From the IMG/VR virus record IMGVR_UViG_2563366836_000013, positions 1 to 40,666 of that record: a stretch of DNA of 40,666 nt, one strand, 5' to 3'. Each line of letters starts with the position of its first letter. Position 1 is the stretch's first letter. The position numbers and the translations under genes are program-made. The notes under the pieces were generated by a model that saw only the letters and a program-made list of their open reading frames with translations, was not told the DNA's origin and did not search any database. Below, one piece after another: positions 1,549 through 40,110 of this stretch. The stretch is from a virus (lineage: Duplodnaviria; Heunggongvirae; Uroviricota; Caudoviricetes).

Positions 1549-1680
1549 GTTGAAGCCTGCTTTTTTATACTAAGTTGGCATTATAAAAAAGCATTGCTTA
1601 TCAATTTGTTGCAACGAACAGGTCACTATCAGTCAAAATAAAATCATTATTTGATTTCAATTTTGTCCCACTCCCTGCCT
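1549..1680. other. Prophage attL (B-O-P'): 15-bp core 1559-1573 plus lambda-like P' arm
   Basis: Core GCTTTTTTATACTAA followed by GTTGGCATTATAAAAAAGCATTGCTTATCAATTTGTTGCAACGAACAGGTCACTATCAGTCAAAATAAAATCATTATTTGATTTC, matching the lambda attP P' arm as recalled; preceded by host B arm ...GAAGCCTGC. Confidence 0.9.
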
Positions 1681-2717
1681 CTGTCATCACGATACTGTGA
1701 TGCCATGGTGTCCGACTTATGCCCGAGAAGATGTTGAGCAAACTTATCGCTTATCTGCTTCTCATAGAGTCTTGCAGACAAACTGCGCAACTCGTGAAAG
1801 GTAGGCGGATCCCCTTCGAAGGAAAGACCTGATGCTTTTCGTGCGCGCATAAAATACCTTGATACTGTGCCGGATGAAAGCGGTTCGCGACGAGTAGATG
1901 CAATTATGGTTTCTCCGCCAAGAATCTCTTTGCATTTATCAAGTGTTTCCTTCATTGATATTCCGAGAGCATCAACATGCAATGCTGTTGGGATGGCAAT
2001 TTTTACGCCTGTTTTGCTTTGCTCGACATAAAGATATCCATCTACGATATCAGACCACTTCATTTCGCATAAATCACCAACTCGCTGCCCGGTAACAACA
2101 GCCAGTTCCATTGCAAGTCTAAGCCAACATGGTGATGATTCTGCTGCTTGATAAATTTTCAGGTATTCGTCAGCCGTAAGTCTTGATCTCCTTACCTCTG
2201 ATTTTGCTGCGCGAGTGGCAGCGACCGGGTTTGTTGTTATATGGCCTTCAGCTATTGCCTCTCGGAATGCATCGCTCAGTGTTGATCTGATTAACTTGGC
2301 TGACGCCGCCTTGCCCTCGTCTATGTATCCATTGAGCATTGCTGCAATTTCTTTTGTGGTGATGTCTTCAAGTGGAACATCAGGTAGCCCCCTCCTTATT
2401 GCTTTAATTTTGCTCATGTAATTTATAAGTGTCTTCTGCTTGATTCCTCTGCTGGCGAGGATTTTTTCGTAGCGATCAAGCCATGAATGTAACGTAACAG
2501 AATTATCACTGTTGATTCTCGCTGTCAGAGGCTTGTGTTTGTGTCCTGAAAATAACTCAATGTTTGCCTGTATTGCTTCAGTAATTGCTATCCTCCTGTC
2601 TCTGCCTAATCCGAACTCTTTACCCGTCCTTGGGTCCCTGTAGCAGTAATATCCATTGTTTCTTATATAAAGGTTAGGGGGTAAATCCCGGCGCTCATGA
2701 CTTCGCCTTCTTCCCAT
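1647..2717 (-). CDS. int: Lambda-type tyrosine integrase Int
   Basis: 356 aa, MGRRRSHERRDLPPNLYIRNNGYYCYRDPRTGKEFGLG... essentially identical to lambda Int as recalled; adjacent to P' arm. Confidence 0.97.
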   Translation of the reverse strand: MGRRRSHERRDLPPNLYIRNNGYYCYRDPRTGKEFGLGRDRRIAITEAIQANIELFSGHKHKPLTARINSDNSVTLHSWLDRYEKILASRGIKQKTLINYMSKIKAIRRGLPDVPLEDITTKEIAAMLNGYIDEGKAASAKLIRSTLSDAFREAIAEGHITTNPVAATRAAKSEVRRSRLTADEYLKIYQAAESSPCWLRLAMELAVVTGQRVGDLCEMKWSDIVDGYLYVEQSKTGVKIAIPTALHVDALGISMKETLDKCKEILGGETIIASTRREPLSSGTVSRYFMRARKASGLSFEGDPPTFHELRSLSARLYEKQISDKFAQHLLGHKSDTMASQYRDDRGREWDKIEIK

Positions 2718-2913
2718 TTCTGATCCTCTTCAAAAGGCTACCTGTTACTGGTCGATTTAAGTCAACCTTTACCGCTGATTCGTGGAACAGATACTCTCTT
2801 CCATCCTTAACCGGAGGAGGGAATATCCTGCATTCGCGCACCCATCGACGAACTGTTTCAAGGCTTCTTGGGCGTCGCTGGCGAGCGTTCCACTCCTGAA
2901 GTGTCAAGTACAT
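2695..2913 (-). CDS. xis: Excisionase Xis (lambda-type)
   Basis: 72 aa MYLTLQEWNARQRRPRSLETVRRWVRECRIFPPPVKDGREYLFHESAVKVDLNRPVTGSLLKRIRNGKKAKS; overlaps int start as in lambda. The ORF-track 102-aa version is a 5' over-extension. Confidence 0.93.
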   Translation of the reverse strand: MYLTLQEWNARQRRPRSLETVRRWVRECRIFPPPVKDGREYLFHESAVKVDLNRPVTGSLLKRIRNGKKAKS

Positions 2914-3027
2914 CGCAAAGTCTCCGCAATTACACGCAAGAAAAAGCCGCATTGATGCGGCGATGGTAGGTCTGGATATCATTGAGCAATGAACAGGCCT
3001 CATCGAGTGTGAGGCTGTATGGCTCCA

Positions 3028-3333
3028 TTATTTCACCTCTTGCTGTGTCATTGTTGAAAAATGGATACCAGCTCGTTGCTGCCAGACGATCCAACCGAGA
3101 GTCATATCCCATGCCATGTATTCGTTATCGCCGTTTTTTGCTCTCCGACGATCTACTAAGTCACCGAAACGCTTTTCCATGAATAATTCATAGGCTTCGC
3201 GTTCATCTGGCTCTACTTCCAGAGATACGAGTGCGATTTCATAAGCACGGCGCTCAATATCGTCTCGAACCTCTAGGCTGCTGATTCGTTCTTTGATTTC
3301 TTTAATCAGTTCTTTATTGGTAAATGTGGTCAT
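3028..3333 (-). CDS. Hypothetical early protein (YfdT-like position)
   Basis: 101-aa ORF, acidic helical protein, stop/start coupled with the upstream gene; same order as the CPS-53 yfdP-T cluster. Confidence 0.5.
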   Translation of the reverse strand: MTTFTNKELIKEIKERISSLEVRDDIERRAYEIALVSLEVEPDEREAYELFMEKRFGDLVDRRRAKNGDNEYMAWDMTLGWIVWQQRAGIHFSTMTQQEVK

Positions 3334-3695
3334 TATGCTCCAGCCTCCGGTGCTTTTGGCATTACTGCCCAGTGAGTGATATTGACGTTTTCAAGGTCCC
3401 CGACCTGAAATATCCACTGCCATTCTCCGGTTTCTTTTTGTCCCCAGGTGTACCAGAGAGAACGCCAGCCAATCAGCCAGCCTTCTCCATTAGCATCAAA
3501 TAACAGAACACTTTCATTTGCTGGTGGCAGTTCAGCTGACACTGGTATTATTTTGTTTTCCAGTGCCGCACATTTAGCTTCAAGCGCGTCGAATTTACGT
3601 ACCAGGTACTCAGCATTTGTTTCGTTCACTTTCAGATCTCGCGGTACACATTTCCCGCGAAGAAACCCTTCCATTTCGAAAACATTCATGCGCAT
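3333..3695 (-). CDS. DUF551-like protein (YfdS-like)
   Basis: 120 aa; C-terminal PVSAELPP ... THWAVMPKAPE resembles the DUF551 signature; packed between neighbours. Confidence 0.55.
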   Translation of the reverse strand: MRMNVFEMEGFLRGKCVPRDLKVNETNAEYLVRKFDALEAKCAALENKIIPVSAELPPANESVLLFDANGEGWLIGWRSLWYTWGQKETGEWQWIFQVGDLENVNITHWAVMPKAPEAGA

Positions 3696-4222
3696 TTGCG
3701 TAACTCCGATAAATCGTTAAAACGTTCCATAAACATCCCGTAGGCATGACCCGGTGCCAGTGGAATCACGTTGAACATCTCTGTTGCCGGGATGCCTTCC
3801 AGTACAGGCCAGAAAGAGCCATCATCAAGCCCGAGATCGCGGCGTTCGGTTGCCAGCATGATGAGATCGGCATATTTCACGGGTGTACTCATAACTGGGG
3901 GTAACTCGTATTTCTCACGGATTACGGCGTCTATTTTTTCTTCCATCCGTTTATAGTCAGGAAGAAGGCGTTTCAGTGGTGCGGGAATGTCCTGGCAATA
4001 CGCTTCTGTTGCATCATGCATTAACGCTTCAAAAGCAAATTCCTGCGGCACCAGCTGGCTGCAAAGAACCGCATGTTGGGCGACGCTGTAGAAGTGCGAA
4101 AGATGACCGGCAAAGCGACAGATATTTGAAAGGGAAACCGCGATATCGTTAATATCGATGTCGTCTTTATTTATCTTGTCATAATAAAAATGCTTCCCGG
4201 AAAAAGTTTTAATAAATGACAT
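3686..4222 (-). CDS. HD-domain phosphohydrolase (YfdR-like 5'-deoxynucleotidase family)
   Basis: Contains H..HD..D metal-binding pattern (HLSHFYSVAQHAV ... MHDATEAY); start set at internal ATG (MSFIKTF) with GGAG 8 nt upstream rather than the GTG of the ORF track. Confidence 0.75.
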   Translation of the reverse strand: MSFIKTFSGKHFYYDKINKDDIDINDIAVSLSNICRFAGHLSHFYSVAQHAVLCSQLVPQEFAFEALMHDATEAYCQDIPAPLKRLLPDYKRMEEKIDAVIREKYELPPVMSTPVKYADLIMLATERRDLGLDDGSFWPVLEGIPATEMFNVIPLAPGHAYGMFMERFNDLSELRKCA

Positions 4223-4349
4223 TTTGTTCTCCACGTATATGCACTGCACCGCGCTGAATTCTGGTAAAAGGAAGCCCTCACCATCCGGTGATTATTGAGT
4301 TAATTACGTTTCCATAAATGCCCCCGCAGGGGCATTTGCAGTAATGAAA

Positions 4350-5174
4350 TCAGGCGGTGAAAGTACCAATAAAGGTTTCTACTTTGCTGTCTTTGAATTT
4401 CTCAACAAGCAGATCACGAAATTCGTTAGCCATTTCTTCCTGCACCGCTTCCAGCTGAATAATGCGCAGAACCAGTACAGGACGATCGCCAGTGATAATG
4501 CTGAGGCGTAATTTAAACGGACGTTCTTTCAGACCTTCAAACGGAACGCATTTAAATTCAAATGCCACTGGCATAATGTCTTTGGTCTTCGCTTCGACAG
4601 ACTCCATCAGGGAGCGTTTGCCGCTGAAGTCATTATCTTCAAAATCAGCGGTCTGGTTTGCTTCAATCGTGATTTTACGGACTGCCGCAGCCGCTTTTGT
4701 TGCTTGAATGGCGTCACCATTAGCATCAAAGCCCACAAGGTAGTCGGCCCAGTCTTCGATCCATTCTGCCAGTGACTTCTGGGAGTTACGCTCGCCGTTA
4801 ACAGACAACAGAGCAGAGAACGGTGCTGTCTTTTTCAGTTTGAGAGTGGCAGTGTTATCTGCGTGACCTGGCTCATCAATAGTACCCAGGTTAAGCACAC
4901 TGACGGCACGCATATTATCGGCATCGATAAAGCAGCGGGTGCCTTCATCTGCAAGATCTTTAGAATAACGGGTAAAATCATCGATGCTGGCAGTGGAAAG
5001 TGCACCACGGAAACGGAAGCGATTTAAATTAAATTTTTCCAGATCATGAATGCGGAAATTCTCAGGCAATGCCACAGCATCGGCACCAATCTTACTGATA
5101 ATTTCATTAACACCCTGAGCAGAAATAAGGGCATGGATTTGATTAATTGCGGTTGCGTCTAAGTTCTGAGACAT
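4350..5174 (-). CDS. YfdQ-like protein (DUF2303 family), function unknown
   Basis: 274 aa, same length and gene order as CPS-53 yfdQ; family recalled from memory. Confidence 0.65.
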
Positions 5175-5239
5175 AATAAGTCCTCACTATATAAAGATAT
5201 TCAGTGATGAGATAAATAATCAGTTTATTACGAACGATA

Positions 5240-5602
5240 TTAACGACCTGCTGCGCGGAGTTTTCCGTCAGGTTCACCGGCAAGAGTCAGTAATTGTCCC
5301 TGGTCTTCCTGCAGAATAGTCAGGCGACCACCGCGATTGACATACATCGGCGTTTCGGTGGTGTCTTCTTCGGAAATTTTCCCGCGGTTAGTCGGGCGAA
5401 TATATGAGAGTTTGTGTTTGATTTTCACACGGTTCTCATCAAATGGTTCGATTTCCAGGTTGAGTGAGACCTTACCTTTGGTTTTCGTGTTCATCACACC
5501 GGAAGCGACTTCACTGAGAACTGCGCCGATTTTGGTTTCAAATACGCCGCCGTCCAGCTCCCCGATAAATGCCTGCACATCAGTACTGCGTTCGCTAGCC
5601 AT
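5240..5602 (-). CDS. YfdP-like hypothetical protein (120 aa)
   Basis: Start at ATG (MASERSTDVQAFIGEL...) preceded by AGGAG 8 nt upstream; the longer ORF-track version (to 5920) runs into GC-rich non-coding sequence. Confidence 0.6.
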   Translation of the reverse strand: MASERSTDVQAFIGELDGGVFETKIGAVLSEVASGVMNTKTKGKVSLNLEIEPFDENRVKIKHKLSYIRPTNRGKISEEDTTETPMYVNRGGRLTILQEDQGQLLTLAGEPDGKLRAAGR

Positions 5603-6814: not shown

Positions 6815-7441
6815 TTAGAGTTCGTATTGAACTCCTTTGACTACACCAATGATAAGGCAATTACCATTGATAGGGATGTTGGGATACCGAGGATTTAATG
6901 GCACTAAAAACTTTTGAGGGCCATCGATGACTAATTTTTTTACTGTAGCTTCGTTTGTTCCATCAAGTCGAGCGATGACTATTTTTCCATGACGAGGTTC
7001 TGCATCTGGATCTACAATCACTGTTGCGCCTTCTGGTATTGTTGGGAGGCCATTAGGGTTAGTCATGGAGTCACCTTTAACCTCTAATGCAAATGAGTTA
7101 TCACCAACCTTTAATGATGTATCTACCCACTTGTCCACTTCACTAAACACTTCTGCTGCCCTGCACTCAGTAAACTGCCCAGCCTGAACCCACGATATTA
7201 CAGGAACTCTGCGCATGTTTGTGACGAGTTTGCCTTCAAACTCAGCACCATAAAGAATGTAATCTATTGACGTATTGAAGAACTTCGCTAATTTCGAAAG
7301 TGCCTCCCCACCAGGGGTATTGATGTCTTTCTCCCAGTACCCCACAGCAACGTCGCTTACTCCACAAAATTTACCCAATTCTTTCTGGGACGTTCTGGTA
7401 ACTCTTCTCAGAGCTTTTATACGCTGACCAACCGTTTCCAT
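6815..7441 (-). CDS. CI-like repressor (XRE HTH N-terminus plus LexA/S24-type autocleavage domain)
   Basis: 208 aa; N-terminal HTH (QKELGKFCGVSDVAVGYWE), C-terminal S24 peptidase-like region (GDSM...K); divergent from the cro-like gene. Confidence 0.9.
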   Translation of the reverse strand: METVGQRIKALRRVTRTSQKELGKFCGVSDVAVGYWEKDINTPGGEALSKLAKFFNTSIDYILYGAEFEGKLVTNMRRVPVISWVQAGQFTECRAAEVFSEVDKWVDTSLKVGDNSFALEVKGDSMTNPNGLPTIPEGATVIVDPDAEPRHGKIVIARLDGTNEATVKKLVIDGPQKFLVPLNPRYPNIPINGNCLIIGVVKGVQYEL

Positions 7442-7538
7442 AGGAGCACCATTTCTTTAATTACTAAGTAATCTTAGTTTTTATTGACCAAAGATAGATT
7501 TGTAATTAGCATCTAACAAAACTTAGTTTGGAGGGCGT
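7442..7538. promoter_or_regulatory. OR / PR-PRM region between repressor and cro-like gene
   Basis: Palindromes ATTACTAAGTAAT and AAACTTAGTTT (CTTAGT half-sites), a TTGACC -35-like hexamer, and GGAGG RBS before the cro-like ATG. Confidence 0.5.
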
Positions 7539-7739
7539 ATGACAACTGACGATATCGAAAGCTACTTCGGCAGTATTGAGAAAGTTGCTGCTTTTTTCGG
7601 CATAACAACTGAAGCCGTTTATCAGTGGCGAAACCGTCCGGGCCAGTTAATTCCAAAAGGACGTGCAGCAGAAGCTGCATATAGAACTTGCGGACGGTTG
7701 CCATTTAAACCTGAGCTTTATGAAAAATCTAATGGATAA
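7539..7739 (+). CDS. Cro-like HTH regulator (YdaS-family)
   Basis: 66 aa, FFGITTEAVYQWRNRPGQLIP resembles YdaS/Cro-type HTH; first gene rightward of the repressor; GGAGG RBS. Confidence 0.75.
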   Translation: MTTDDIESYFGSIEKVAAFFGITTEAVYQWRNRPGQLIPKGRAAEAAYRTCGRLPFKPELYEKSNG

Positions 7740-8334
7740 ATCGATTAACAGAAACCACAGAACGATGAGGCTAACCGTGGGTAAGCATCACTGGAAAGTA
7801 GAAAAACAGCCTGAGTGGTACGTGAAAGCTGTCAGAAAAACTATCGCAAAGTTGCCGGGTGGTTACGCTGAAGCAGCTGACTGGCTGGATGTAACAGAGA
7901 ACGCATTATTTAACCGCCTTCGTGCCGATGGCGATCAGATTTTCCCGCTGGGATGGGCAATGATTTTGCAACGTGCTGGTGGCACTCACTTCATTGCTGA
8001 TGCTGTGGCGCAGTCTGCAAATGGCGTCTTTGTGTCGCTTCCTGACGTCGAGGATGTGGACAACGCCGATATTAACCAGCGTCTGCTGGAAGTCATTGAA
8101 CAGATCGGCAGTTATTCAAAACAGATTCGTTCAGCAATCGAAGACGGTGTAGTGGAACCGCATGAGAAGACAGCAATTAACGACGAGCTGTATCTCTCAA
8201 TTTCGAAGCTGCAGGAGCATGCAGCACTGGTCTACAAAATCTTTTGCATTTCAGAAAGTAATGACGCCCGCGAGTGTGCAGCTCCGGGCGTCGTGGCGTC
8301 GATTGCTTCTGGTTGTGGAGAAACTAACGCATGA
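7720..8334 (+). CDS. CII-like regulatory protein (YdaT / Phage_CP76-like)
   Basis: Position immediately after cro; start set at ATG 7720 ([10 protein letters not shown]...), overlapping cro end; start uncertain. Confidence 0.45.
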
Positions 8335-8669
8335 ACAGTTTAACAACACACTACCGTCGCTCGCAACTGATTGCGCTTCCTGTACCGGGTGGAAAAGCGA
8401 AGGTGGAATATTGCTATGCAGTGAATGTACCAGGTGACAGGGAAATTGTAACCCACAGCTTTGCAGAGTGGGCTGTGGGGGATTTCAACCGGCAGAAGGA
8501 GACAGTCCTTTGCGACAAGTTAACCGCTGGTTCAAAGATCACTACGGAGTGCCCGTCAGAGTCATTCGTTGGGAACCGGAAACACAACGGGTTATCTACC
8601 TCCGCGAAGGCTATGAGCATGAGTGCTTCAGTCCGCTCGAACAGTTTCGTCGTAAATTCAGGGAAATAG
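8331..8669 (+). CDS. Hypothetical protein (start coupled ATGA with upstream gene); C-terminal half looks non-protein-like
   Basis: ATG overlaps the upstream stop; N-terminal 55 aa plausible, remainder S-rich low complexity; overlaps the next ORF in another frame. Confidence 0.3.
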
Positions 8670-8689
8670 AGGTCGGTCATGAGCACTAA
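8468..8689 (+). CDS. DUF4222-like small protein (possibly the C-terminal part of a frameshifted gene)
   Basis: ...[45 protein letters not shown] is protein-like and recalled as DUF4222-like; frame is open from 8438; GTG start only. Confidence 0.35.
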
Positions 8690-9620
8690 ATTAACCGGCT
8701 ATGTATGGGATGGTTGCGCAGCGTCAGGCATGAAATTATCCAGCGTGGCAATTATGGCCCGCCTGGCTGATTTCAGTAATGACGAAGGTGTGTGCTGGCC
8801 ATCGATTGAAACCATTGCCCGCCAGATTGGCGCGGGGATGAGTACCGTCAGAACGGCTATCGCACGGCTGGAAGCAGAAGGCTGGTTAACGCGTAAGGCG
8901 CGTCGCCAGGGTAACCGCAATGCGTCGAATGTTTATCAGCTTAACGTTGCGAAGCTTCAGGCAGCGGCATTTTCTCAACTGTCAGATTCTGACCCGTCAA
9001 AATCTGACGCATCAAAATCTGACCCGTCAAAATTTGATGCGTCGAAATCTGGCAAAAAAGCGGGTTTTCACCCGTCAGAATCTGGCGGGGATCCGTCAGT
9101 AAAATCAAAACATGATCCGTCAGATAAAAAACCTTCTCGTCCGGACGCTTCGCAACCGGACACGCAGACGGCTGAACAGGATTTTTTAACTCGCCATCCT
9201 GATGCGGTTGTATTCAGCCCTAAAAAGCGCCAGTGGGGAACGCAGGATGATTTGACCTGCGCACAGTGGCTCTGGAAAAAAATCATCGCCCTGTACGAGC
9301 AGGCCGCCGAATGTGACGGCGAGGTGGTTCGTCCCAAAGAACCGAACTGGACAGCCTGGGCAAACGAAATTCGCCTGATGTGTGTGCAGGATGGTCGTAA
9401 TCATAAACAAATCTGCGAGATGTACAGCCGCGTCAGTCGCGATCCGTTCTGGTGCCGTAACGTGCTCAGCCCGTCGAAGCTGCGGGAAAAATGGGATGAG
9501 CTTTCCCTGCGCTTATCGCCGTCCGTCAGCACGTACACCGAAAAACGCGAAGACCCGTACTTCAAATCCAGTTACGACAACGTGGACTACAGCCAGATCC
9601 CGGCAGGATTCAGGGGGTGA
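8679..9620 (+). CDS. Replication initiator (lambda O-like N-terminal HTH, DnaT-like C-terminus) with embedded iterons
   Basis: 313 aa; N-terminal HTH (WPSIETIARQIGAGMSTVRTAIARLEAEGWL); central SDPSKSDASKSDPSKFDASKS repeats encoded by DNA iterons; GAGG RBS. Confidence 0.8.
   Translation: MSTKLTGYVWDGCAASGMKLSSVAIMARLADFSNDEGVCWPSIETIARQIGAGMSTVRTAIARLEAEGWLTRKARRQGNRNASNVYQLNVAKLQAAAFSQLSDSDPSKSDASKSDPSKFDASKSGKKAGFHPSESGGDPSVKSKHDPSDKKPSRPDASQPDTQTAEQDFLTRHPDAVVFSPKKRQWGTQDDLTCAQWLWKKIIALYEQAAECDGEVVRPKEPNWTAWANEIRLMCVQDGRNHKQICEMYSRVSRDPFWCRNVLSPSKLREKWDELSLRLSPSVSTYTEKREDPYFKSSYDNVDYSQIPAGFRG
8981..9131. repeat. Iteron array (probable phage replication origin) inside the initiator gene
   Basis: About 6 direct repeats of CCGTCA(A/G)AATCTGA-like units (tgacccgtcaaaatctgacgcatcaaaatctgacccgtcaaaatttgatgcgtcgaaatctgg ... 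atccgtcagataaaaaacc). Confidence 0.65.
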
Positions 9621-9622
9621 TC

Positions 9623-10111
9623 ATGAGTCTGTTAAATGACGTTCAGAAATTCATTGAAGCCCATCCTGGGTGTACTTCCGGAGACATTGCGGATGCTTTT
9701 GCAGGTTACTCACGGCAGCGCGTTCTGCAGTCTGCAAGCAAGTTACGTCAGAGTGGGCGTGTGGCTCACCGTTGTGAAGGAGATACACGCAGACATTTCC
9801 CGCGCCTGACTGAGAGAGCGCAGGAGCCGGAACCACAACCAGTTCGTGAAACCAGACCTGTGCGCAATTTCTATGTCGGCACTAACGATCCCCGGGTGAT
9901 TTTGTGCCTGACCCGCCAGGCTGAAGAACTGGAGTCAAGGGGCTTATACCGTCGTGCTGCAACCGTGTGGATGGCGGCATTCCGTGAAAGCCACTCCCAG
10001 CCAGAACGAAACAATTTTCTGGCGCGTCGTGAGCGGTGTTTACGGAAAAGCAGCAAGCGCGCTGTATCGGGTGAAGAGTGGTATCTGTCAGGGAATTACG
10101 TGGGGGCTTAA
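9623..10111 (+). CDS. Putative DNA-binding regulator (PerC/ANR-like C-terminal motif)
   Basis: 162 aa from ATG with AGGGGG RBS; motif ...LESRGLYRRAATVWMAAF recalls PerC/ANR family; assignment tentative. Confidence 0.4.
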   Translation: MSLLNDVQKFIEAHPGCTSGDIADAFAGYSRQRVLQSASKLRQSGRVAHRCEGDTRRHFPRLTERAQEPEPQPVRETRPVRNFYVGTNDPRVILCLTRQAEELESRGLYRRAATVWMAAFRESHSQPERNNFLARRERCLRKSSKRAVSGEEWYLSGNYVGA

Positions 10112-10764: not shown

Positions 10765-11087
10765 CGACGTTAACTCAATGCCAGCAGCAGGTGCTGGATA
10801 TGCTGATTTCTTATCAGAAAGAACGTGGCTTTCCGCCAACCAATCAGGAGGTGGCAACCATGCTGGGATACCGTTCGGTGAATGCAGCGGTGGAGCATCT
10901 TCGCGCACTGGAGAAAAAAGGCGTCATCACGATAAAGCGTGGCGTGGCCCGGGGTATCACGCTTCATACCACAGTGAAGGACGACGACAGCGAGGCAGCC
11001 GGGATTATCCGCGCACTGCTTGCCGGTGAGGAAAACGCCAGACTGCGTGCAGCCCACTGGTTACATGAGAGGGGCCTGAAAGTATGA
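10761..11087 (+). CDS. LexA-N-terminal-like winged-helix DNA-binding protein
   Basis: LTQCQQQVLDMLISYQKERGFPPTNQEVATMLGYRSVNAAVEHLRALEKKGVI resembles the LexA DNA-binding domain; no peptidase domain. Confidence 0.55.
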   Translation: MTTLTQCQQQVLDMLISYQKERGFPPTNQEVATMLGYRSVNAAVEHLRALEKKGVITIKRGVARGITLHTTVKDDDSEAAGIIRALLAGEENARLRAAHWLHERGLKV

Positions 11088-11473: not shown

Positions 11474-11492
11474 GCAAGAGGAGAAACGAAGT

Positions 11493-12302: not shown

Positions 12303-12303
12303 G

Positions 12304-13305: not shown

Positions 13306-13326
13306 GTGTATGGAGCGCTGAGAAGT

Positions 13327-25651: not shown

Positions 25652-25659
25652 GAATCTTC

Positions 25660-29909: not shown

Positions 29910-29940
29910 AGACGAACAGGGAGGGCCGCCCTCCCTGAAC

Positions 29941-30351: not shown

Positions 30352-30355
30352 TTAT

Positions 30356-31681
30356 ATGACGTGGAAAGACAGACTTCAGGACGCGTCATTTCGCGGCGTG
30401 CCGTTTAAGGTTGAAGAAGAAAGTGCGGGAACCGGTCGCCGTGTGGAAACACATGAATACCCGAACCGCGACAAACCCTATACCGAAGACCTGGGGAAAA
30501 TCACTTTTCGCCCGTCCATCACGGCTTATGTGGTGGGAGATGACTGCTTTGACCAGCGCGATCGCCTGATTGACGCGCTGAATAAACCCGGTCCCGGCAC
30601 GCTTGTCCATCCGACATACGGTGAGCTGAAAGTCTGTGTTGACGGAGAAGTTCGGGTCAGCACATCGAAGAGTGAAGGGCGTATTGTCCGCTTTGACCTG
30701 AAGTTTGTCGAAGCGGGAGAACTCTCTTACCCCACTTCAGGTGCGGCGACGGCGCAGACGCTGATGTCATCCTGTTCTGCACTGGATGACTGCATCAGTG
30801 ACAGCTTCAGAGGTTTCAGTATCGATGGCGTGGCGGATTTCGTGCAGAACGACGTCGTCGGTAATGTCAGCACAATGCTTGGGTATGTTTCTGATGCGAT
30901 GAAAGTGGTGGATTCTGCCGTATCGGATGCTGCCAGGCTGTTGCAGGGGGATATCTCGGTACTTCTGCCGCCGCCATCGTCAGGCAAAAATTTCGTTGAG
31001 CAGGTGCAGAAAATGTGGCGTACCGGGAAACGCCTTTATGGTAACGCCAGCGACCTGGTCACCATGATCAAAACGCTTTCCGGTGTCAGCCTCGGCAGCG
31101 ATCTGCAACCGCGCGGCGTCTGGAAAACGGACAGTAAAACCACCGCCACGGCTACGCAGCAGCGTAACGTGGTTGCCAGCACCCTTCGTACGACCGCAAT
31201 CAGCGAAGCGGCGTATGCCGTCACCCGATTGCCTGCGCCAACAACTTCCGCGGTGATGCAGAATGCCGCAGTGGGGCAGGCAACAACACCTGCGCAGAGC
31301 ACTGGCTGGCCTTCCGTCACGCATCCGGCACTGAACAATGCACCGACGGTGAAAAACACAGTTGACCTGCCGACGTGGGAAGAACTGACTGACATTCGCG
31401 ACACACTGAATACGGCAATTGATAAGGAGTTGTCCCGTACAACCAGTGATGCGCTGTTTCTGGCGCTGCGCCGGGTGAAAGCAGATCTGAATGCGGATAT
31501 CAACACGCGCCTTGAACAGTCTGCACGGATCATTCAGCGCACGCCGGATGAGGTTTTACCCGCGCTGGTGCTGGCGGCGACCTGGTTTGATAACGCGGCG
31601 CGTGACGCGGACATTATCCGGCGTAATGCCATTACGCATCCCGGATTTGTGCCGGTGATCCCTCTGAAGGTGCCAGTGTAA
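30356..31681 (+). CDS. DNA circularisation protein (Mu gpN-like) of the baseplate
   Basis: 441 aa, N-terminal MTWKDRLQDASFRGVPFKVEE... typical of Mu N-like proteins. Confidence 0.8.
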   Translation: MTWKDRLQDASFRGVPFKVEEESAGTGRRVETHEYPNRDKPYTEDLGKITFRPSITAYVVGDDCFDQRDRLIDALNKPGPGTLVHPTYGELKVCVDGEVRVSTSKSEGRIVRFDLKFVEAGELSYPTSGAATAQTLMSSCSALDDCISDSFRGFSIDGVADFVQNDVVGNVSTMLGYVSDAMKVVDSAVSDAARLLQGDISVLLPPPSSGKNFVEQVQKMWRTGKRLYGNASDLVTMIKTLSGVSLGSDLQPRGVWKTDSKTTATATQQRNVVASTLRTTAISEAAYAVTRLPAPTTSAVMQNAAVGQATTPAQSTGWPSVTHPALNNAPTVKNTVDLPTWEELTDIRDTLNTAIDKELSRTTSDALFLALRRVKADLNADINTRLEQSARIIQRTPDEVLPALVLAATWFDNAARDADIIRRNAITHPGFVPVIPLKVPV

Positions 31682-32760
31682 TGAACGATAACGTCACGCT
31701 ACGGGTAAATGGCCGGGAGTGGAATGGCTGGACATCGGTGCGCATCGGTGCCGGTGTTGAACGACTGGCGCGGGATTTCAGTGTGGAGATCACTCGCCAG
31801 TGGCCGGGAGATGAGGGTATCACCACGCTTCAGCCGCGCATTAAAAACGGTTCAAAAGTGGAAGTGCTGATTGGTGATGAGCTGGTGATCACCGGCTGGG
31901 TGGAGGCGACTCCCGTTCGTTACGATGCCCGTTCGGTCAGCACCGGTATTGCCGGACGTAGTCTGACGGCTGACCTGATTGACTGTGCAGCCGAACCGAC
32001 ACAGTTTAACGGACGCTCGCTGGTGCAGATTGCGCAGGCGCTTGCTGCGCCTTTCGGCATTGAGGTGGTGAACAGCGGTGCGCCGTCGGGTGTTATTCCT
32101 GATGTTCAGCCTGATCACGGTGAAACGGTGATTGAGGTAATCAACAAAATACTCGGTCAGCAGCAGGCGCTGGCTTATGACGACCCGCACGGCAGGCTGG
32201 TGATTGGTGGTATTGGCTCAACGCGGGCACATACCGCGCTGGTACTCGGGGAAAACATCCTTTCCTGCGATACGGAGAAGAGTATCCGGGAGCGGTTTTC
32301 TGTTTACCAGGTGGCGGGGCAGCGTGCCGGAAACGACGATGATTTCGGTGAGGCCACCACCACCGCGCTGCGGGCCCGCACAGAGGACGCATTTATTGCC
32401 CGTTACCGTCCGATGTATATCAGGCAGACAGGGCAGGCTACGGGGGCAGGCTGTATTGCCCGTGCGGACTTTGAAGCCCGACAACGGGCGGCGCGGACGG
32501 ATGAAACCACCTATGTGGTGCAGGGCTGGCGACAGGGTAACGGTACGCTGTGGCAGCCCAACCAGCGGGTGATTGTCTTTGATCCGGTCTGTGGTTTCGA
32601 CAACACCGAACTGCTTGTTTCGGAAGTCACGTTTACTCAGGACCAGAACGGCACCCTGACGGAAATCCGTGTCGGCCCACCAGATGCTTATCTGCCTGAA
32701 CCCGAAGCCCCCGGCGCGCGGAAAAAGAAAAAAGCCAGAGTACAGGAGGACCCGTTCTGA
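31681..32760 (+). CDS. Baseplate hub / tail protein (Mu gpP-like, P2 gpD-like)
   Basis: 359 aa, TAATG-coupled; position and similarity to Mu P-like tail proteins. Confidence 0.75.
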   Translation: MNDNVTLRVNGREWNGWTSVRIGAGVERLARDFSVEITRQWPGDEGITTLQPRIKNGSKVEVLIGDELVITGWVEATPVRYDARSVSTGIAGRSLTADLIDCAAEPTQFNGRSLVQIAQALAAPFGIEVVNSGAPSGVIPDVQPDHGETVIEVINKILGQQQALAYDDPHGRLVIGGIGSTRAHTALVLGENILSCDTEKSIRERFSVYQVAGQRAGNDDDFGEATTTALRARTEDAFIARYRPMYIRQTGQATGAGCIARADFEARQRAARTDETTYVVQGWRQGNGTLWQPNQRVIVFDPVCGFDNTELLVSEVTFTQDQNGTLTEIRVGPPDAYLPEPEAPGARKKKKARVQEDPF

Positions 32761-33308
32761 TGAGGACGATTGAAGCCATGCAGCGACAACTCCTCGGCCT
32801 GATTGGGCGGGCCGTGGTGAAAAGCATCAGTGCCGCCACGAAATGTCAGACCGTGGATGTGTCCCTGATTGCCGGTGAACCCAAAGCCGGGGTTGAACAT
32901 CTTGAACCCTACGGTTTTACTGCAAGGGCAAACAGTGGTGCGGAAGCGGTGGTGTTGTTTCCGGATGGCGACCGTTCTCATGCGGTGGTTGTTACGGTGT
33001 CGGACCGTCGCTACCGCCTGAAAGGGCTGCAGACGGGGGAGGTGGCTGTCTATGACGATCAGGGGCAGTCCGTGACGCTGACCCGGGAGGGGATTGTGGT
33101 GGACGGTGCAGGTAAAACGATCACGTTTCGCAATGCACCTGAAGCACGTTTTGAAATGGACCTGGAAGTGACAGGACAGGTGAAAGACCTGTGCGACTCC
33201 GGCGGCACCACCATGTCAGCGATGCGGCTTGCCTATAACGGGCATCGTCACAGAGAGAACGGTCAGGGCAGTAACACCGACAAACCTGATAAAGCGATGG
33301 AGGCATGA
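32760..33308 (+). CDS. Baseplate assembly protein V (spike)
   Basis: 182 aa, gpV-like. Confidence 0.75.
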   Translation: MRTIEAMQRQLLGLIGRAVVKSISAATKCQTVDVSLIAGEPKAGVEHLEPYGFTARANSGAEAVVLFPDGDRSHAVVVTVSDRRYRLKGLQTGEVAVYDDQGQSVTLTREGIVVDGAGKTITFRNAPEARFEMDLEVTGQVKDLCDSGGTTMSAMRLAYNGHRHRENGQGSNTDKPDKAMEA

Positions 33309-33733
33309 TGGAACTGTGGCTGACGGTGAACGGTAAACGCACCTGCGCCAGCGCACCGCTGGATCCGCTGACCCGCGCCGTGGTGATTTCCCTGTTTACC
33401 TGGCGGCGGGCGGAGCCTGATGACAACGCCGACGTCCCGATGGGATGGTGGGGGGATACCTGGCCTGCGGTACAGAATGACCGTTACGGCTCCCGGCTGT
33501 GGCTGCTTCAGCGCAGCAAACTGACCAATCAGCTGGTGCAGACGGTAAAGGGGTATATCCGCGAATGCCTGCAATGGATGATTGATGACGGCGTGGTGTC
33601 CCGTATTGATCTGGATATCCGCCGCACCGGGATTAATGAACTGGGTAACAGTATCACTCTCTGGCGTCGTGACGGACCGGTAATGATTTCTTTTGATGAT
33701 CTGTGGAGTGCGATAACGCATGGCGGACAGTGA
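33305..33733 (+). CDS. GP46-family baseplate protein (gp25/W-like)
   Basis: 142 aa in the Mu gp46 position. Confidence 0.7.
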   Translation: MMELWLTVNGKRTCASAPLDPLTRAVVISLFTWRRAEPDDNADVPMGWWGDTWPAVQNDRYGSRLWLLQRSKLTNQLVQTVKGYIRECLQWMIDDGVVSRIDLDIRRTGINELGNSITLWRRDGPVMISFDDLWSAITHGGQ

Positions 33734-34778
33734 ATTTCAGCGCCCGACGCTGGCAGAAAATATCAGTATGCTCCGTAACGATTTATTCGCCAGGCTGGAC
33801 GTCAGCGACACGCTCCGGCGCATGGATGAAGACGTGCGGGCAAAGGTGTATGCGGCGGCGCTGCATACGGTTTACGGGTACATCGATTATCTGGCAATGA
33901 ATATGCTGCCTGACCTGTGCGATGAGTCCTGGCTGGCGCGACATGCTGCGATGAAACGGTGTCCGCGCAAGGGGGCCACGGCTGCCAGCGGGTATATGCG
34001 CTGGGAAGGTGTCAGCGATGGCCTGAAGGTGACTGCCGGAAGCGTGATTCAGCGCGATGACCTGGTTCAGTACACGGCAACTGCCGATGCAACCAGCTCC
34101 GGTGGTGTCCTGCGCGTGCCGATCGCCTGCTCAAGTGCAGGCGCGGTCGGTAACGCTGACGACGGTACGTCATTAATCCTGGTCACGCCGGTGAATGGTC
34201 TGCCGTCTTCCGGCGTGGCAGATACCCTGACAGGTGGATTTGATACTGAAGAGCTGGAAACGTGGCGCGCCCGCGTCATTGAGCGGTATTACTGGACGCC
34301 TCAGGGCGGGGCTGACGGGGACTATGTCGTCTGGGCTAAAGAAGTGCCCGGCATTACCCGCGCATGGACATACCGTCACTGGATGGGAACGGGAACTGTC
34401 GGTGTGATGATTGCCAGCAGTGACCTGATTAATCCCATTCCGGAAGAATCAACGGAAACGGCGGCAAGACAACATATCGAGCCACTGGCCCCGGTGGCAG
34501 GCTCTGATTTGTATGTGTTCAGGCCGGTGGCACATACGGTGGATTTTCATATCCGCGTGACGCCGGACACACCGGAAATACGGGCTGCCATCACCGCGGA
34601 GTTGCGTTCGTTCCTGCTGCGTGATGGTTATCCGCAGGGAGAACTGAAGGTATCGCGTATCAGTGAGGCGATTTCCGGTGCGAACGGGGAATACAGCCAT
34701 CAGTTGCTTGCACCGGCAGACAATATCTCCATTGCAAAAAATGAACTGGCGGTTCTGGGGACGATTTCATGGACGTGA
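33720..34778 (+). CDS. Baseplate J-like protein
   Basis: 352 aa, baseplate J family features and position. Confidence 0.85.
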
Positions 34779-35353
34779 CAAACGATGATTACATCCGTCT
34801 GTTGTCGGCACTGTTGCCCCCTGGTCCGGCGTGGTCAGCCAGCGATCCGGCGATTGCCGGTGCGGCACAGTCATTAACCCGTGCTCATCAGCGTGCGGAT
34901 GCCCTGATGCGGGAGCTGGATCCGCGCACCACCACCGAACTGATAAACCGCTGGGAGCGTCTGTGCGGCCTGCCGGATGAATGTATTCCGGCAGGGACGC
35001 AGACCCTTCGCCAGCGTCAGCAACGGCTGGATGCGAAGGTTAACCTGGCGGGTGGCATCAATGAGGATTTTTACCTTGCGCAGCTTGCTGCCCTGGGCAG
35101 ACCAGATGCCAACATCACGCGATACGACAAAAGCACGTTCACCTGCTCATCGGCCTGTACTGACGCGGTGAATGCGCCGGAATGGCGGTATTACTGGCAG
35201 GTCAACATGCCAGCTGCCACCAACACCACCTGGATGACATGTGGCGATCCCTGTGATTCCGCACTGCGTATCTGGGGCGACACCGTTGTCGAGTGTGTGC
35301 TTAACAAACTCTGCCCGTCGCATACCTACGTAATTTTTAAATATCCGGAGTAA
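34769..35353 (+). CDS. Tail protein I-like (DUF2313, YmfQ-like)
   Basis: 194 aa, [22 protein letters not shown]... resembles YmfQ / Mu gp48-type proteins. Confidence 0.75.
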
Positions 35354-35356
35354 TCC

Positions 35357-36289
35357 ATGCATCGTATAGACACGAAAACCGCGCAGAAGGATAAGTTCGG
35401 CGCGGGTAAGAACGGTTTTACCCGTGGTAACCCCCAGACCGGCACACCTGCCACCGATCTGGATGATGACTACTTTGACATGTTGCAGGAAGAACTTTGT
35501 AGCGTGGTGGAGGCCTCCGGTGCCAGCCTGGAGAAGGAGCGGCACGACCAGTTGCTTACCGCGCTTCGTGCGCTGCTGTTAAGCCGCAAGAATCCGTTTG
35601 GTGATATCAAATCGGATGGCACGGTGAAAACGGCTCTCGAAAACCTTGGTTTGGGAGATGGCTCGGGGCGTTACAGCAAAACTGTCGTTTTTTCATCGTC
35701 GGGTTCATATACGTGGCCAGCTGACGTAAAACGAATTGACGTTATTCTGACTGCGGGGGGCGGCGGTGGCGGTGGATGTAACGCGGAGAACGCAAATCAG
35801 ACATTTTCAGGGGCTGGCGGAGGAGCCGGAGGTACTGTTTTTGCCACTATTTATGCGACAGACAACGATGCCGGGCCAGGAACCTATACAGTGACAATTG
35901 GCAGCGGTGGTAGTGGTGCCAATGGGGCAGGGTCTGGAAATAATGGCGGTAATAGTTCGTTCATGACATTAACTGCGCTCGGCGGCCAGGGTGGGCAATG
36001 GGGCGGCGCTACAAATACCGCTGGCGGGCGCGGTGGCTCAGGCTCTGGCGGTTATAAAACTGAACAAGGCGGAGACGGTTCAGACGGACAGGCGGGCCAG
36101 GCGCTATTAGTAGGCAATGGGGCATCGAGCTATTGGGGTGGCGGCGGCCGCGCTGGGCAACTGAGCGGTAATCCTGGAGTTTGCTCTGGCTCCGGCGGCG
36201 GGGGTGCATACGATAATAGCTATTCACACACGTCAGGACGTGGCGGGCACGGAGCTAATGGCGTGCTGGTAATTCGGGAGTACATGTAA
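35357..36289 (+). CDS. Tail fiber protein (conserved N-terminal anchor plus Gly-rich distal domain)
   Basis: 310 aa; N-terminus [22 protein letters not shown] resembles the shared side-tail-fiber N-domain; C-terminal half is Gly-rich low complexity. Confidence 0.75.
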
Positions 36290-36694
36290 ATGAATGATGT
36301 CTATGCAGTTGTTGATAATAACGTTGTTATTAATGTCATTATCTGGGACGGAATTTCTGAATGGAAACCAGAGGCTGGTAATTTAGTTCCGTTAAACGGC
36401 GATGCTGGCATCGGTTGGTCATATTCAGACGGAGTATTTACCGCGCCACCTCCCCCAGAACGCTCTCACAACGCGTTAGTTGCGGAGGCTGAGCTGCAGA
36501 AATCAGCACTACTGACCGTAGCAAATAACGCAATAGCACCGCTGCAGGATGCCGTTGATTTGGAAATGGCGACAGACGATGAACAGACGTTACTGCTGGC
36601 GTGGAAAAAATACAGGGTACTGCTGAACCGTGTTGATACCTCAGCGGCACCCGAAATAGAGTGGCCTACGCAACCGGGGGAGCGGGCCAGTTGA
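36290..36694 (+). CDS. Tail fiber assembly protein (Tfa)
   Basis: 134 aa, [21 protein letters not shown] ... APEIEWPT typical Tfa; TAAATG coupling to fiber gene. Confidence 0.8.
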
Positions 36695-36992: not shown

Positions 36993-38468
36993 CTAAAGTG
37001 AATCTATTCCATTTTTCCAAATAAGAACTTTTTTGTCTTGTATTTTATGAGTGCTATCAGGCTGCCCAAACTGTTTTATGGCCTTTTCCTCTTGCTCTAC
37101 ATCATCAGCAATTAAAAAATTAGCTCCTTTTTGGTACCATTCTTTTTTTGATAACCAATTATATGGTGTGAATCTATCACCATACGACTCAAATGGAGCT
37201 ACGTTGATATCACTAAATCCAGCAACAGATGATGCAAACCAAAATGATGCATAACCTCTTTGTAGTTTATTTTTTATTAAGAAATCTCTTAATTCTATTG
37301 TAATATCATTTTTATTAACAATGTTTTTTGTTGTTGCCATCGTTGGCAACGATAACGCAATAACGATTAATGATATTAGTAAATTTGTCTTCACTGGTAA
37401 GGAGAAAGAATTTCTAGCAATCACAATTGACATGAAAATAAACGTTGGGACTATGTATCTAATTGAGAAAAGATTTGTTGGCCTGTCACTTGAAACATAG
37501 GCAATCAACATGACTAATGATGATACAATAAGAACCTGGTCAATAAAATCAATTTCTTTAAATTTAAGAATGTTTTTATAAGATAAAAATAAGAATACAA
37601 AAATGAAAAACACCTTTATCATGGTGAATAATGAGTTAAAGCTACCTATCTCCATTCCAAACGCGTACCCACCAAAAAATTTGAATACGCCCATGATAAC
37701 AAGAGATATGTTGCTTGTTATTTGTTGAAACTCTACTATGTGAGGTTTGGTTATGCCTGGCAGGTTAAATCCACCAAGCTTAATGAATATAAATGATATG
37801 AGCTCAGCAATAAATATAGATGATATAGTGAAAACCAACAATAACAAATCATTAGTATTCAACGAATCTCTTTTCATTAGAGAAGCATACATTCTATATA
37901 TGCAAACAAAAACTATAGGTATTATAAAGGCATATTTAGATATATCATCACTAAAAACAAGCAACGATAACATAAATACATATGGAAAAAGTAATTTTAA
38001 ATCATTTTTCTTTCTGTATCTATCTATTATTAGTATGATCGCCAGCATGTAAATGTACGCACCAATATGTATACATGCTATAAGCATTATACTTGATGAG
38101 AAAACCGTTGGAATTCCAAATACAGAAAGAACAGGCCATAACGATGCCCTGCTTTTAGTATGAGAGATATATAGCGATAGTGTTACTAACATAGACATGA
38201 AAATTCCAGGCACAATATAGTACAGATTTTCATTAAATCCTATTATTTTTATCGCTATAGCATATGGTATTATTTCTGTGAAATAGAATGATACAGTTGA
38301 TAAATCCCACCCACTGAGAAAAATATTTCCTTCAGTAATATCCCTTGCCTCTCTGAATGAAGACATGACATCTGAGTTTGGAATTATGTTTTTAGCAATC
38401 ATTGAGTAAATTATTGATAATACAATAAATGTTGCCAGCCAATATAAAAGCTCAAGCTTCTTGCTCAT
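36993..38468 (-). CDS. GtrC-type serotype-specific O-antigen glucosyltransferase (polytopic membrane protein)
   Basis: 491 aa, very AT-rich, many TM helices, immediately downstream of gtrA-gtrB (ATGA-coupled). Confidence 0.8.
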
Positions 38469-39382
38469 TTTTTACCCTTAAGTACATACTTTGGACGCTG
38501 CTTAACTTCAATGTAAATTCTACCAATATACTCACCGAGCACTCCAATCCCAATTAACTGGATGCCGCCAAGAAATAATATTGATACAAGAATTGAAGGG
38601 TATCCAGGTACATTATTACCAAAAATTAATTTATCAATTATCATCCATGAACCGTATGTAAATGATATACATGCAATAAATAACCCAATATAGGTCCACA
38701 TGCGAAGCGGGAATGTTGAGAAGCTAGTGATCCCTTCCAGCGCCAAGTTCCATAGCTTCCATCCATTGAACTTTGTGCTTCCTGCAACGCGTTCTGCTCG
38801 CGCATATTCTACGACATCGGTTCGACCACCAACCCAGCTCAGCACACCCTTCATAAACAGGTTTCGTTCTGGCATGAGCTTAATGTTTTCTACTACTTCG
38901 CGAGACATGAGCCGGAAGTCGCCAACATTCTCTTCTATCTGAGGGTTGCTGATTTTGTTATGAAGTTTATAGAACCACTCAGCAGATTTACGCTTCAGCC
39001 TGCTGTCAGTGGAGCGGTCAGAGCGTTTAGCCAGAACCATATCTGCACCGGCCTGCCATTTCTCTATCAAGTGAGGAATAACTTCGATAGGGTCTTGCAG
39101 ATCAACGTCAATCGGGATAATTGCCTCCCCGGTAGCATGGTCCAGACCTGCGAACAGGGCGGGTTCTTTGCCGAAGTTACGTGTGAACGACAGCGAAACA
39201 ACAAGCGGGTCGGCAACAGCAAGCTCGTTGATAATTGATTCTGTAGCGTCTTTGCTGCCATCGTTTATGAAGACTATCTCGACTTCATGCTGCTGAAGCC
39301 CTTCAAATTCGCGCACAGTTTTATAAAAAATAGGTATCGTGGCCTCTTCGTTAAAGACCGGAACGACTAAAGAAATTTTCAT
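38465..39382 (-). CDS. gtrB: GtrB bactoprenol glucosyltransferase (GT2 family)
   Basis: 305 aa, [13 protein letters not shown]...FINDGSKD...DVDLQDP GT2 motifs and C-terminal TM helices. Confidence 0.92.
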
Positions 39383-39741
39383 TTCGCATCCCTAAAGACA
39401 ATGAACTTTGAATAGACGAAACCGCACACCAGGCTGATGGCGGAGAAGGTGACAAGAGTTATCATCGGGGGAAGTGCGCATCTATCAGCAGCCCATCCAA
39501 CAGTAGCACTGAGTGTTCCCATGAACCCGACATATAACATGTAGCGCATCGTTGTAGTTGATGCTTTGAATGTGAATTTTGCATTCGCGAAGAAGCTAAA
39601 ACTCACAGCCACAACGAAACCTGCGAAGTTTGCCAGAGCCTGATTGGTATGCGCGGCATAGATACATACACCAAAAACCACCCAGTGTATAAGTGTGTTC
39701 AGCACACCAATCGAGGTGTACCTTGCAAATATATTTAACAT
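39379..39741 (-). CDS. gtrA: GtrA flippase (bactoprenol-linked glucose translocase)
   Basis: 120 aa, four TM helices, GtrA-like; first gene of operon. Confidence 0.9.
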
Positions 39742-39895
39742 TTATTTAATCAATGAGTTCTGAAAGGTATGAAGTCTATCATCCAAGTCTCAATCGATCG
39801 ATACTTGCGGTAGTTGATGAGGAAAACTCTGGTACACAAAGCTTTGCACTGGACTGCAAGGTGTTGTGCTTCTCTGGAGTGCGATATGTTTGATG

Positions 39896-39939
39896 ACAAA
39901 AAATTAGCGCAAGAGGACAAAAAATCACCTTGCGCTAAT
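39896..39939 (-). terminator. Minus-strand rho-independent terminator upstream of the gtr promoter region
   Basis: 10-bp perfect inverted repeat TTAGCGCAAG / CTTGCGCTAA; on the minus strand the hairpin is followed by TTTTTTGT. Confidence 0.45.
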
Positions 39940-40110
39940 GCTCTGTCTCAGGTCACTAATACCATCTAAGTAGTTGATTCATAGTGACTGGATATGTTGT
40001 GTTTTGTAGTATCATGCAGTCTATTTTTTAGACTAAATGTATTTTAACGCATTGATATTATTGGCTTTTACTGTTTTGCGTTCAGCTTTTTTATACTAAC
40101 TTGAGCGAAA
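39925..40110. other. Prophage attR (P-O-B'): lambda-like P arm, 15-bp core 40085-40099, host B' arm
   Basis: ...GGTCACTAATACCATCTAAGTAGTTGATTCATAGTGACTG... P-arm-like sequence, core GCTTTTTTATACTAA, then CTTGAGCGAAACGGGAAGG (host B' arm as recalled). Confidence 0.88.

Follow-up and report, generated by a model that had tools for sequence, protein, structure and literature searches.

A lambda/HK97-type integration cassette in an SfV-like prophage at attB(lambda) of Escherichia coli

SfV-like prophages have been classed as one group, with five integration sites in Escherichia coli (Bobay et al., PMC3603311). Prophage ROD15/042p1 of E. coli 042, described in 2010, lies at 877116..917926 of that genome (40,811 bp), its site being given as a ‘15bp direct repeat’; it carries gtrAB and Ec042-0853 as cargo, half of it is lambda/P22-like and its structural half is highly related to SfV (PMC2808357). 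A 2026 preprint describes lysogeny by a P22-like phage upstream of ybhC. Here we analyse a related element contained in a stretch of 40,666 nt, IMG/VR virus record IMGVR_UViG_2563366836_000013 (the whole stretch is called the window below). An earlier note on this DNA had proposed that attB(lambda) is occupied by a non-lambda mosaic prophage that uses a lambda integration module. We consider it very probable that the element is an apparently complete SfV-like temperate phage, a lambdoid myovirus, that resides at attB(lambda) and in which a lambda/HK97-type segment of ~1.66 kb has taken the place of the original integration cassette.

Attachment site and composition of the element

The 15-bp attachment (att) core GCTTTTTTATACTAA is present in exactly two copies in the window, where none is expected by chance (Table 1). 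At the left junction, host sequence is followed by the core and GTTGGCATT, the order B-O-P′; at the right junction GTTCA is followed by the core and CTTGAGCG, the order P-O-B′. A lambda lysogen is oriented in this way. The flanking host genes are ybhC and ybhB, with bioA beyond ybhB in related genomes, and the ybhC/ybhB interval is the classical gal-attB(lambda)-bio locus. When an empty attB was rebuilt by joining window positions 1259-1573 to 40100-40399, the resulting 615-bp sequence was found at 100% identity in several E. coli genomes. Since the joined flanks give a precise empty site, the ends of the element are exactly the two cores, and the insertion measures 38,526 bp with one core counted. 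The cores, the flanks and the empty site thus bear out the occupation of attB(lambda) that had been proposed.

The site is contiguous in 3,492 of 5,426 complete E. coli genomes. Among the 5,425 complete genomes with a match, the ybhC-ybhB site is interrupted in 1,933 (~36%), which suggests that attB(lambda) is often occupied among natural E. coli isolates.

Int and Xis had been described as essentially those of lambda, and they are (Table 1). Int differs from lambda Int by A114V, H164P and I248V and Xis from lambda Xis by G59S; none of these substitutions falls at what we take to be a catalytic position. The DNA from the core through the P′ arm, int and xis is 99.2% identical to HK97 and 98.1% to lambda, by which measure the integration module is nearer to HK97 than to lambda. 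On the P′ side the first difference from lambda is at 1976, within int, so that the P′ arm itself contains none, as the earlier note had stated. The att site names and consensus sequences used here follow the established lambda literature. Whole-element comparison confirmed that the int/xis/att module is not substantially diverged from lambda (98-99% identity).

The remainder of the element belongs with the serotype-converting phages SfV, SfI, SfII and SfIV of Shigella flexneri and their E. coli relatives. Megablast against 50,697 phage records was combined with blastn directly against SfV, SfII, CPS-53 of E. coli K-12 and 042p1, and module labels were taken from PGAP and Pfam. Where alignable, identity is 95-98%. 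Positions 2966-6001 are 97.3% identical to SfV and positions 2958-5621 are 97.7% identical to K-12 CPS-53, in agreement with the CPS-53-like early-left genes noticed earlier. The cII-like gene with the replication and nin-type genes (7752-13289) is 96.2% identical to SfII, and the genes from terminase through tape measure, including sheath and tube (17998-29912), are 97.9% identical to SfII. The Mu-like baseplate region (30352-35658) is 97.5-97.8% identical to SfV and SfII. The tail as a whole is 95-98% identical to SfV/SfII up to 35658, beyond which the fibre tip and the assembly gene align poorly or not at all. The architecture is that of SfV, SfII, SfI and SfIV: early-left genes, replication/nin region, terminase, head (of SfII type), Mu-like tail and gtrABC adjoining att. 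The element (38.5 kb) is also of similar size to SfV (37.1 kb) and SfII (41.5 kb).

Unlike the window, SfV and SfII have an SfV-type Int/Xis and an attP derived from tRNA-Thr (thrW) in the same slot, so that the earlier description of an SfV-like layout, with gtr next to att but with a different integrase and site, was correct. They also differ in the immunity region, Q, the lysis genes, the tail-fibre tip and gtrC. The SfV-type integrase and the thrW site do not define the group, given its five integration sites in E. coli. No SfV/SfII counterpart was found for cI and cro (6001-7752), for Q, a 261-aa open reading frame (ORF) and the lysis genes (13296-16551), for 16860-17643, for a 440-bp insert at 29912-30352, or for the tail-fibre tip, the fibre assembly gene and gtrC (35658-38487). 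Only short SfV/SfII alignments, of 75-83%, were obtained at 16551-16859 and 36498-36637.

Lambda, HK97, HK106 and 434 share with the window the core, the P′ arm, Int, Xis, the sib/tI region and the Int and integration host factor (IHF) sites. With int, xis and att 98-99% identical to lambda/HK97 and head genes of the HK97 fold, the element might be regarded as a lambda or HK97 derivative (Lambdavirus/Hendrixvirinae) that acquired foreign late genes. We rejected this identity, which we consider highly improbable, because it is contradicted by the whole-element alignments. The lambda/HK97-type part of the element comprises only ~1.66 kb (sib-attP-int-xis), no lambda homology was found outside it in those alignments, and the structural, early and regulatory genes of lambda are absent. 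Lambda is a siphovirus, whereas the window holds a myovirus-type genome: the head genes align with SfII as given above, with no HK97 match reported outside int-xis-att, the tail is contractile and Mu-like, and the early-left, replication and nin regions are of SfV/CPS-53 type.

Table 1. Coordinates of features in the 40,666-nt window
Feature	Position	Strand	Basis or comparison
ybhC, host gene on gal side of attL	229..1512	-	PGAP annotation of SW070912 copy
attL core (B-O-P′)	1559..1573	+	exact match
P′ arm	1574..1655	+	100% identical to lambda
H′ IHF consensus	1597-1611	+	in P′ arm, identical to lambda
Arm-type Int site P′1	1619-1629	+	identical to lambda
Arm-type Int site P′2	1630-1639	+	identical to lambda
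Arm-type Int site P′3	1640-1650	+	identical to lambda
int, lambda-type tyrosine integrase, 356 aa	1647..2717	-	353/356 identical to lambda Int
xis, excisionase, 72 aa	2695..2913	-	71/72 identical to lambda Xis
Left cassette junction	2946..3018	-	homology end points
Early-left genes like yfdT, yfdS, yfdR, yfdQ, yfdP (SfV orf28-32)	3028..5602	-	PGAP names
Immunity region	6815..8334	.	Pfam
cI, helix-turn-helix and S24 peptidase domain	6815-7441	-	Pfam
cro, P22_Cro	7539-7739	+	Pfam
cII-like YmfL/CP76	7777-8334	+	Pfam Phage_CP76/YmfL
Replication and nin-like region	8510..14016	+	PGAP, Pfam, SfV/SfII alignment
Q antiterminator, phage-82 family	13327-14016	+	Pfam PF06323
Lysis cassette: two holins, GH19 endolysin, Rz/Rz1 spanins	15089..16879	+	PGAP; Pfam Glyco_hydro_19
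Packaging and head genes	17647..23630	+	Pfam HNH, Terminase_4, Phage_capsid; PGAP
Head-tail connectors and Mu-like contractile tail	23680..36694	+	Pfam sheath, DNA_circ_N; SfV annotation ‘similar to Mu’
O-antigen glucosylation cassette beside attR	36993..39741	-	Pfam
gtrC-slot gene, 491 aa	36993-38468	-	position; overlaps gtrB end
gtrB, GT2 family	38465-39382	-	Pfam Glycos_transf_2, PF00535
gtrA	39379-39741	-	Pfam GtrA_DPMS_TM, PF04138
Right cassette junction	39810..39870	.	homology end points
sib/tI retroregulator region, downstream of int in attP configuration	39832..39945	-	aligns to lambda, nearly identical to HK106
P arm	39950..40084	+	alignment to lambda
P1	39950-39959		0 differences vs lambda
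H1	39967-39979		0 differences vs lambda
P2	39980-39989		0 differences vs lambda
X1	39992-40005		0 differences vs lambda
X1.5-X2-F	40006-40035		8 differences vs lambda
H2 consensus TAAnnnnTTGATA	40045-40057		3 differences vs lambda
H2-C spacer	40058-40082		10 differences vs lambda
C core-type site	40083-40091		0 differences vs lambda; straddles arm-core boundary
attR core (P-O-B′)	40085..40099	+	exact match
ybhB, host gene on bio side of attR	40190..40666	-	PGAP annotation

Cassette boundaries and related prophages

The end points of homology define both junctions of the cassette. On the left, homology to lambda stops at ~2947 and homology to HK97, 434 and 042p1 at 3015-3018; homology to CPS-53 starts at 2958 and to SfV and SfII at 2966, and both lineages share ~50 bp. 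At this switch point, upstream of xis, the minus strand has a terminator-like hairpin (2961-2946, then TTTTTCTT). On the right, homology to SfV, SfII and CPS-53 upstream of gtrA stops at 39861-39870 and lambda/HK106 homology runs from ~39832; their overlap is a sib-like stretch that is partly conserved in both lineages. Past this overlap, SfV and SfII run into a 3′ fragment of tRNA-Thr, their attP, and the window runs into lambda tI and the P arm. An exchange that retargeted the phage would have taken place at these two short conserved boundaries, the hairpin region upstream of xis and the sib-like stretch upstream of gtrA.

Other integration modules are found on the same backbone, namely SfV-type Int/Xis at thrW in SfV and SfII, IntS/TorI at argW in CPS-53 and an e14-type Int adjoining icd in vB_EcoM-689R6. 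CPS-53 (KplE1) is 97.7% identical to the window over yfdT-yfdP and yfdO-yfdM and has the same boundaries beside its cassette, but it is heavily deleted. vB_EcoM-689R6 is 97.5% identical over 69-74% of the element and, unlike it, has no gtr cassette. We also observed that the boundaries at 2958-3018 and 39832-39870 flank the cassette in SfV, SfII, CPS-53, HK97, 434 and 042p1 as well, and that the integrases next to them are of SfV type, IntS/TorI and lambda type; 689R6, with its e14-type enzyme as a fourth integrase type, has the backbone. The two boundary sequences behave as recurrent recombination linkers, and cassette exchange at such repeatedly used module boundaries is standard lambdoid mosaicism.

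As had been noticed earlier, the P arm carries several substitutions. Over the P arm and sib (39832-40084), 35 of 253 columns differ from lambda by mismatch or indel (87.6% identity by BLAST); HK106 is 92% identical over the P-arm/sib region by BLAST. H2 here reads TAA-CGCA-TTGATA, and its three changes are confined to the NNNN positions, where the IHF consensus YAANNNNTTGATW is degenerate. When five sequences were aligned, most non-lambda bases of the P arm recurred in HK97, in HK106 or at the attR of vB_EcoP-720R6, a P22-like prophage, and each of the eight substitutions across X1.5-X2-F was also present in at least one of these three. The P-arm variants are those of the HK97/HK106 lineage, and the substitutions represent one natural allele among the P arms of the lambda family. 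We considered P-arm decay and rejected it because the changes avoid the Int and IHF sites and recur in other phages. In the adjoining sib/tI region, the int-sense RNA of 39825-39950 is predicted to fold into a tI-type terminator hairpin followed by a U run (-42.2 kcal/mol, z = -4.7).

The closest described relative at this site is 042p1 of the enteroaggregative strain 042 (O44:H18). It, too, is inserted between ybhC and ybhB and is bounded by the 15-bp repeat found here. Its int-xis-att end is 98.35% identical to window 229-3018, and its late region from HNH to gtrA, with the flank, is 98.38% identical to window 17647-40666. It differs from the window in the 14.6 kb between 3018 and 17647, which are unrelated and include the early, replication, Q, lysis and adjacent genes: here 042p1 has P22/lambda-like RecT, Kil, N, CII, DnaB and nin genes, a different Q and a lambda-type holin, whereas the genes of the window are of SfV/CPS-53 type. 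The lambda site and integrase are already known to be used by 042p1 and by other non-lambda phages that carry a lambda cassette.

Among the 5,426 complete E. coli genomes, ≥80% of window 1-6000, a segment that covers ybhC, attL, int, xis and the early-left genes, is present in at least 34. The right end including this gtrC was found in 10 genomes among the complete E. coli matches listed, and the junction was absent from the GTDB species-representative genomes, in which one genome per species was searched and which thus gave no sign of the element beyond E. coli. The copy in SW070912 has 2 mismatches in 40,472 bp against window 195-40666 (99.995% identity). Just outside ybhC, window 1-162 (+) encodes the C-terminal end of an IS3-family transposase (…SPVEYRTEYQKAG*). 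SW070912 homology starts at 195, and SW070912 has ybhJ where the window has the transposase; this insertion sequence is therefore strain-specific and outside the prophage. Rfam and tRNA scans of the window gave no matches.

The comparison with 042p1 also bears on how the hybrid arose. The lambda cassette could be what remains of an earlier lambda/HK97/042p1-like prophage at attB with which an incoming or resident SfV-like genome recombined in situ; the hybrid would then have been born in the chromosome, with no need to have moved as a phage. The identical ends of 042p1, its P22/lambda-like early region and the fact that the pair differ by one internal 14.6-kb replacement agree with such an origin; the interruption of attB(lambda) in ~36% of complete genomes would have given ample opportunity, and the short sequences shared at the junctions would lend themselves to homologous exchange. 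The presence of the hybrid in at least 34 complete genomes, with flanks of 98-100% identity, fits spread or descent alike. We regard the in situ origin as possible, though tentatively so. It concerns origin only and leaves unchanged the present function expected of an SfV-like phage with a lambda/HK97-type cassette.

Predicted life cycle and gene content

A full set of lambdoid phage modules is present as ORFs, and from these the behavior of the SfV-like phage can be predicted. Integration would be carried out by Int and IHF through attP × attB recombination across the 15-bp core. Excision would require Int, Xis, IHF and Fis and would follow SOS-triggered, RecA-stimulated autocleavage of the LexA-like, S24-type cI. 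Retroregulation of int by sib would operate only when attP is contiguous. The HNH protein, TerS and TerL would package DNA from cos ends, and the particle would combine a head of HK97 type with a contractile tail of Mu type. As a resident prophage, the element would express gtrABC beside attR and so attach a glucose branch to the O antigen of its host.

Several observations weigh against a complete and active phage. An exact 56-mer for the attP form (P arm-core-P′ arm) had 0 matches in IMG/VR, and all 13 IMG/VR contigs that carry the gtrA/sib junction have the integrated, attR form. A 46-mer for attP had 0 matches in metagenome contigs, a result that is uninformative since the attR-form control was absent there too. 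Among the best matches listed for the attR end, none spans the gtrA/lambda-attP junction, all starting at query position ≥124. The eight differences from lambda across X1.5-X2-F lie in the predicted Xis/Fis binding region. PGAP flags a few small pseudogenes, and one moron is without a start codon. Finally, the gtrC-slot protein gave no tblastn match in the 50,697 phage records.

These observations would suit a domesticated or cryptic prophage that neither excises nor forms particles and that is kept vertically for its gtr cargo. Such a prophage would account for the finding of integrated forms only in IMG/VR, for the lack of a phage isolate record with this junction or this gtrC, and for the truncated Sie-like ORF and the small pseudogenes flagged by PGAP; CPS-53 of K-12 shows that in-place decay occurs in the SfV-like family. 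However, the ORFs of the structural, lysis, replication and regulatory genes are all of full length and follow SfV/SfII synteny, Int and Xis differ from those of lambda by only three and one substitutions, none at a recognised catalytic position, every Int and IHF site is intact, and the 38.5-kb size fits SfV and SfII. We therefore consider a cryptic state unlikely, and the genome is predicted to encode a recombination-competent and inducible SfV-like phage.

The lambdoid layout is apparent in the divergent cI/cro pair, the cII-like gene and the Q antiterminator ahead of the lysis genes. The earlier note had described the cro and cII genes as YdaS/YdaT-type. These labels were imprecise: Cro scores 42.8 bits against P22_Cro (cut-off 30.2) and only a sub-threshold 19.5 against YdaS (cut-off 30), and the cII-like protein is of the Phage_CP76/YmfL family and not YdaT, its gene being 88% identical to SfV and 96% to SfII. 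The replication and nin-like region encodes an O-like initiator, YfdN, a Dam methylase, a protein with a LexA DNA-binding domain (LexA-DBD), RusA, KilA-N and DUF968/HNH proteins and Q. The assignment of Q to the phage-82 type was upheld by PF06323 and by 31% identity to phage 82 Q (E 8e-30); its identity to any phage record is at most ~61%. No PDB match was found that would place Q with the solved lambda or phage-21 type, and Q is a distant member of the phage-82 family.

The HK97-type head with HNH/P27 TerS and the Mu-type contractile tail, both recognised earlier, were supported by Pfam together with PGAP and the SfV annotation, respectively. The packaging and head genes encode an HNH endonuclease, a P27-family TerS, TerL, portal, an HK97-family prohead protease and a major capsid protein of the HK97 fold. 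The tail genes encode sheath, tube, tape measure, a gpN-like DNA-circularisation protein, P/gp45-48-like baseplate proteins, a tail fibre and a fibre assembly protein. The head is joined to the tail in SfV gene order.

The 440-bp insert contains an opposite-strand moron (29941-30327, -) between the tape-measure and gpN-like genes. Its match to PHROG 8545, ‘superinfection exclusion Sie-like’, begins only at profile position 42, and its frame has no ATG, GTG or TTG after the upstream stop. The moron looks N-terminally truncated, its signal peptide or lipobox probably having been lost. PGAP names the product ‘OB-fold protein’, and the gene is also present in 042p1.

Three further ORFs stand at particular places in this layout. 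A 226-aa ORF at 5240-5920 (-) covers yfdP and the region upstream of it; in SW070912, PGAP annotates the ORF upstream of yfdP (window 5617-5927, -) as a frameshifted hypothetical protein. A 171-aa ORF at 6072-6587 (+), assigned to PHROG 1244 (function unknown), adjoins cI opposite to the early-left operon and had no defence-family match. Lambdoid phages often carry exclusion genes beside cI, opposite the early-left operon. The 261-aa ORF at 14210-14995 (+), assigned to PHROG 5322 (function unknown), lies between Q and the holins and gave no Pfam, NCBIfam or PADLOC match. Stx phages carry stx in this late-promoter-proximal slot after Q. PADLOC analysis of the unassigned ORFs found no defence system and only a weak partial match in the KilA-N protein.

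The gtr cassette and the host O antigen

The earlier note had also proposed gtrABC. Pfam confirmed gtrA, for a flippase-like protein, and gtrB, for a bactoprenol glucosyltransferase, and the DNA of gtrB, gtrA and the sequence upstream (38487-39861) is only ~80% identical to SfV and SfII. The product of the gene in the gtrC slot is a polytopic membrane protein: it has ~9-10 hydrophobic segments, and ~110 aa at its C terminus form a soluble domain. It is identical to Ec042-0853 at 488 of 491 positions; no Pfam, NCBIfam or PDB sequence match was found for it, and its C-terminal half matches only PHROGs of unknown function. Ec042-0853 was labelled a glucosyl transferase in the description of E. 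coli 042 (PMC2808357). The position of the gene and this literature suggest that the protein may be an O44-type glucosyltransferase.

Other genes occupy the same slot elsewhere. In strain GN06156 it holds an unrelated 495-aa gene of the GtrII family (PF14264; positions 1897-3384 of locus L024), and among the matches listed most other carriers cover only 71% of the right-end query, lacking this gtrC segment. Serogroups O17, O44, O73, O77 and O106 share one O-antigen backbone and differ by glucose branches that are attributed to gtr prophages; for O44, a gtr prophage found in the genome confirmed the attribution (PMC7685785). Tentatively, the SfV-like scaffold at attB(lambda) might be an exchange platform for unrelated gtrC alleles, which perhaps distinguish O17, O44, O73 and O106 from the unbranched O77 backbone in lineages of clinical importance. 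The 491-aa protein, found in the window and in the O44:H18 strain 042, would then be one allele, and the GtrII-family gene would be the allele in most other carriers. If this is true, serogroups that in-silico serotyping at present fails to tell apart would be recognisable in genome sequences by the gtrC allele carried at attB(lambda).

The arrangement has been known from 042p1 since 2010, and the modular exchange seen here is of the textbook kind and leaves current understanding unchallenged. It provides a worked example of a 1.66-kb integration cassette swapped between otherwise unrelated temperate phage lineages, a swap by which an O-antigen-converting phage would exchange a tRNA gene for attB(lambda) as its target. 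The gtr genes of the prophage probably modify the O antigen of the host, by O44-type glucosylation within the O77 group, and this would bear on serotyping, the availability of phage receptors and immune recognition.

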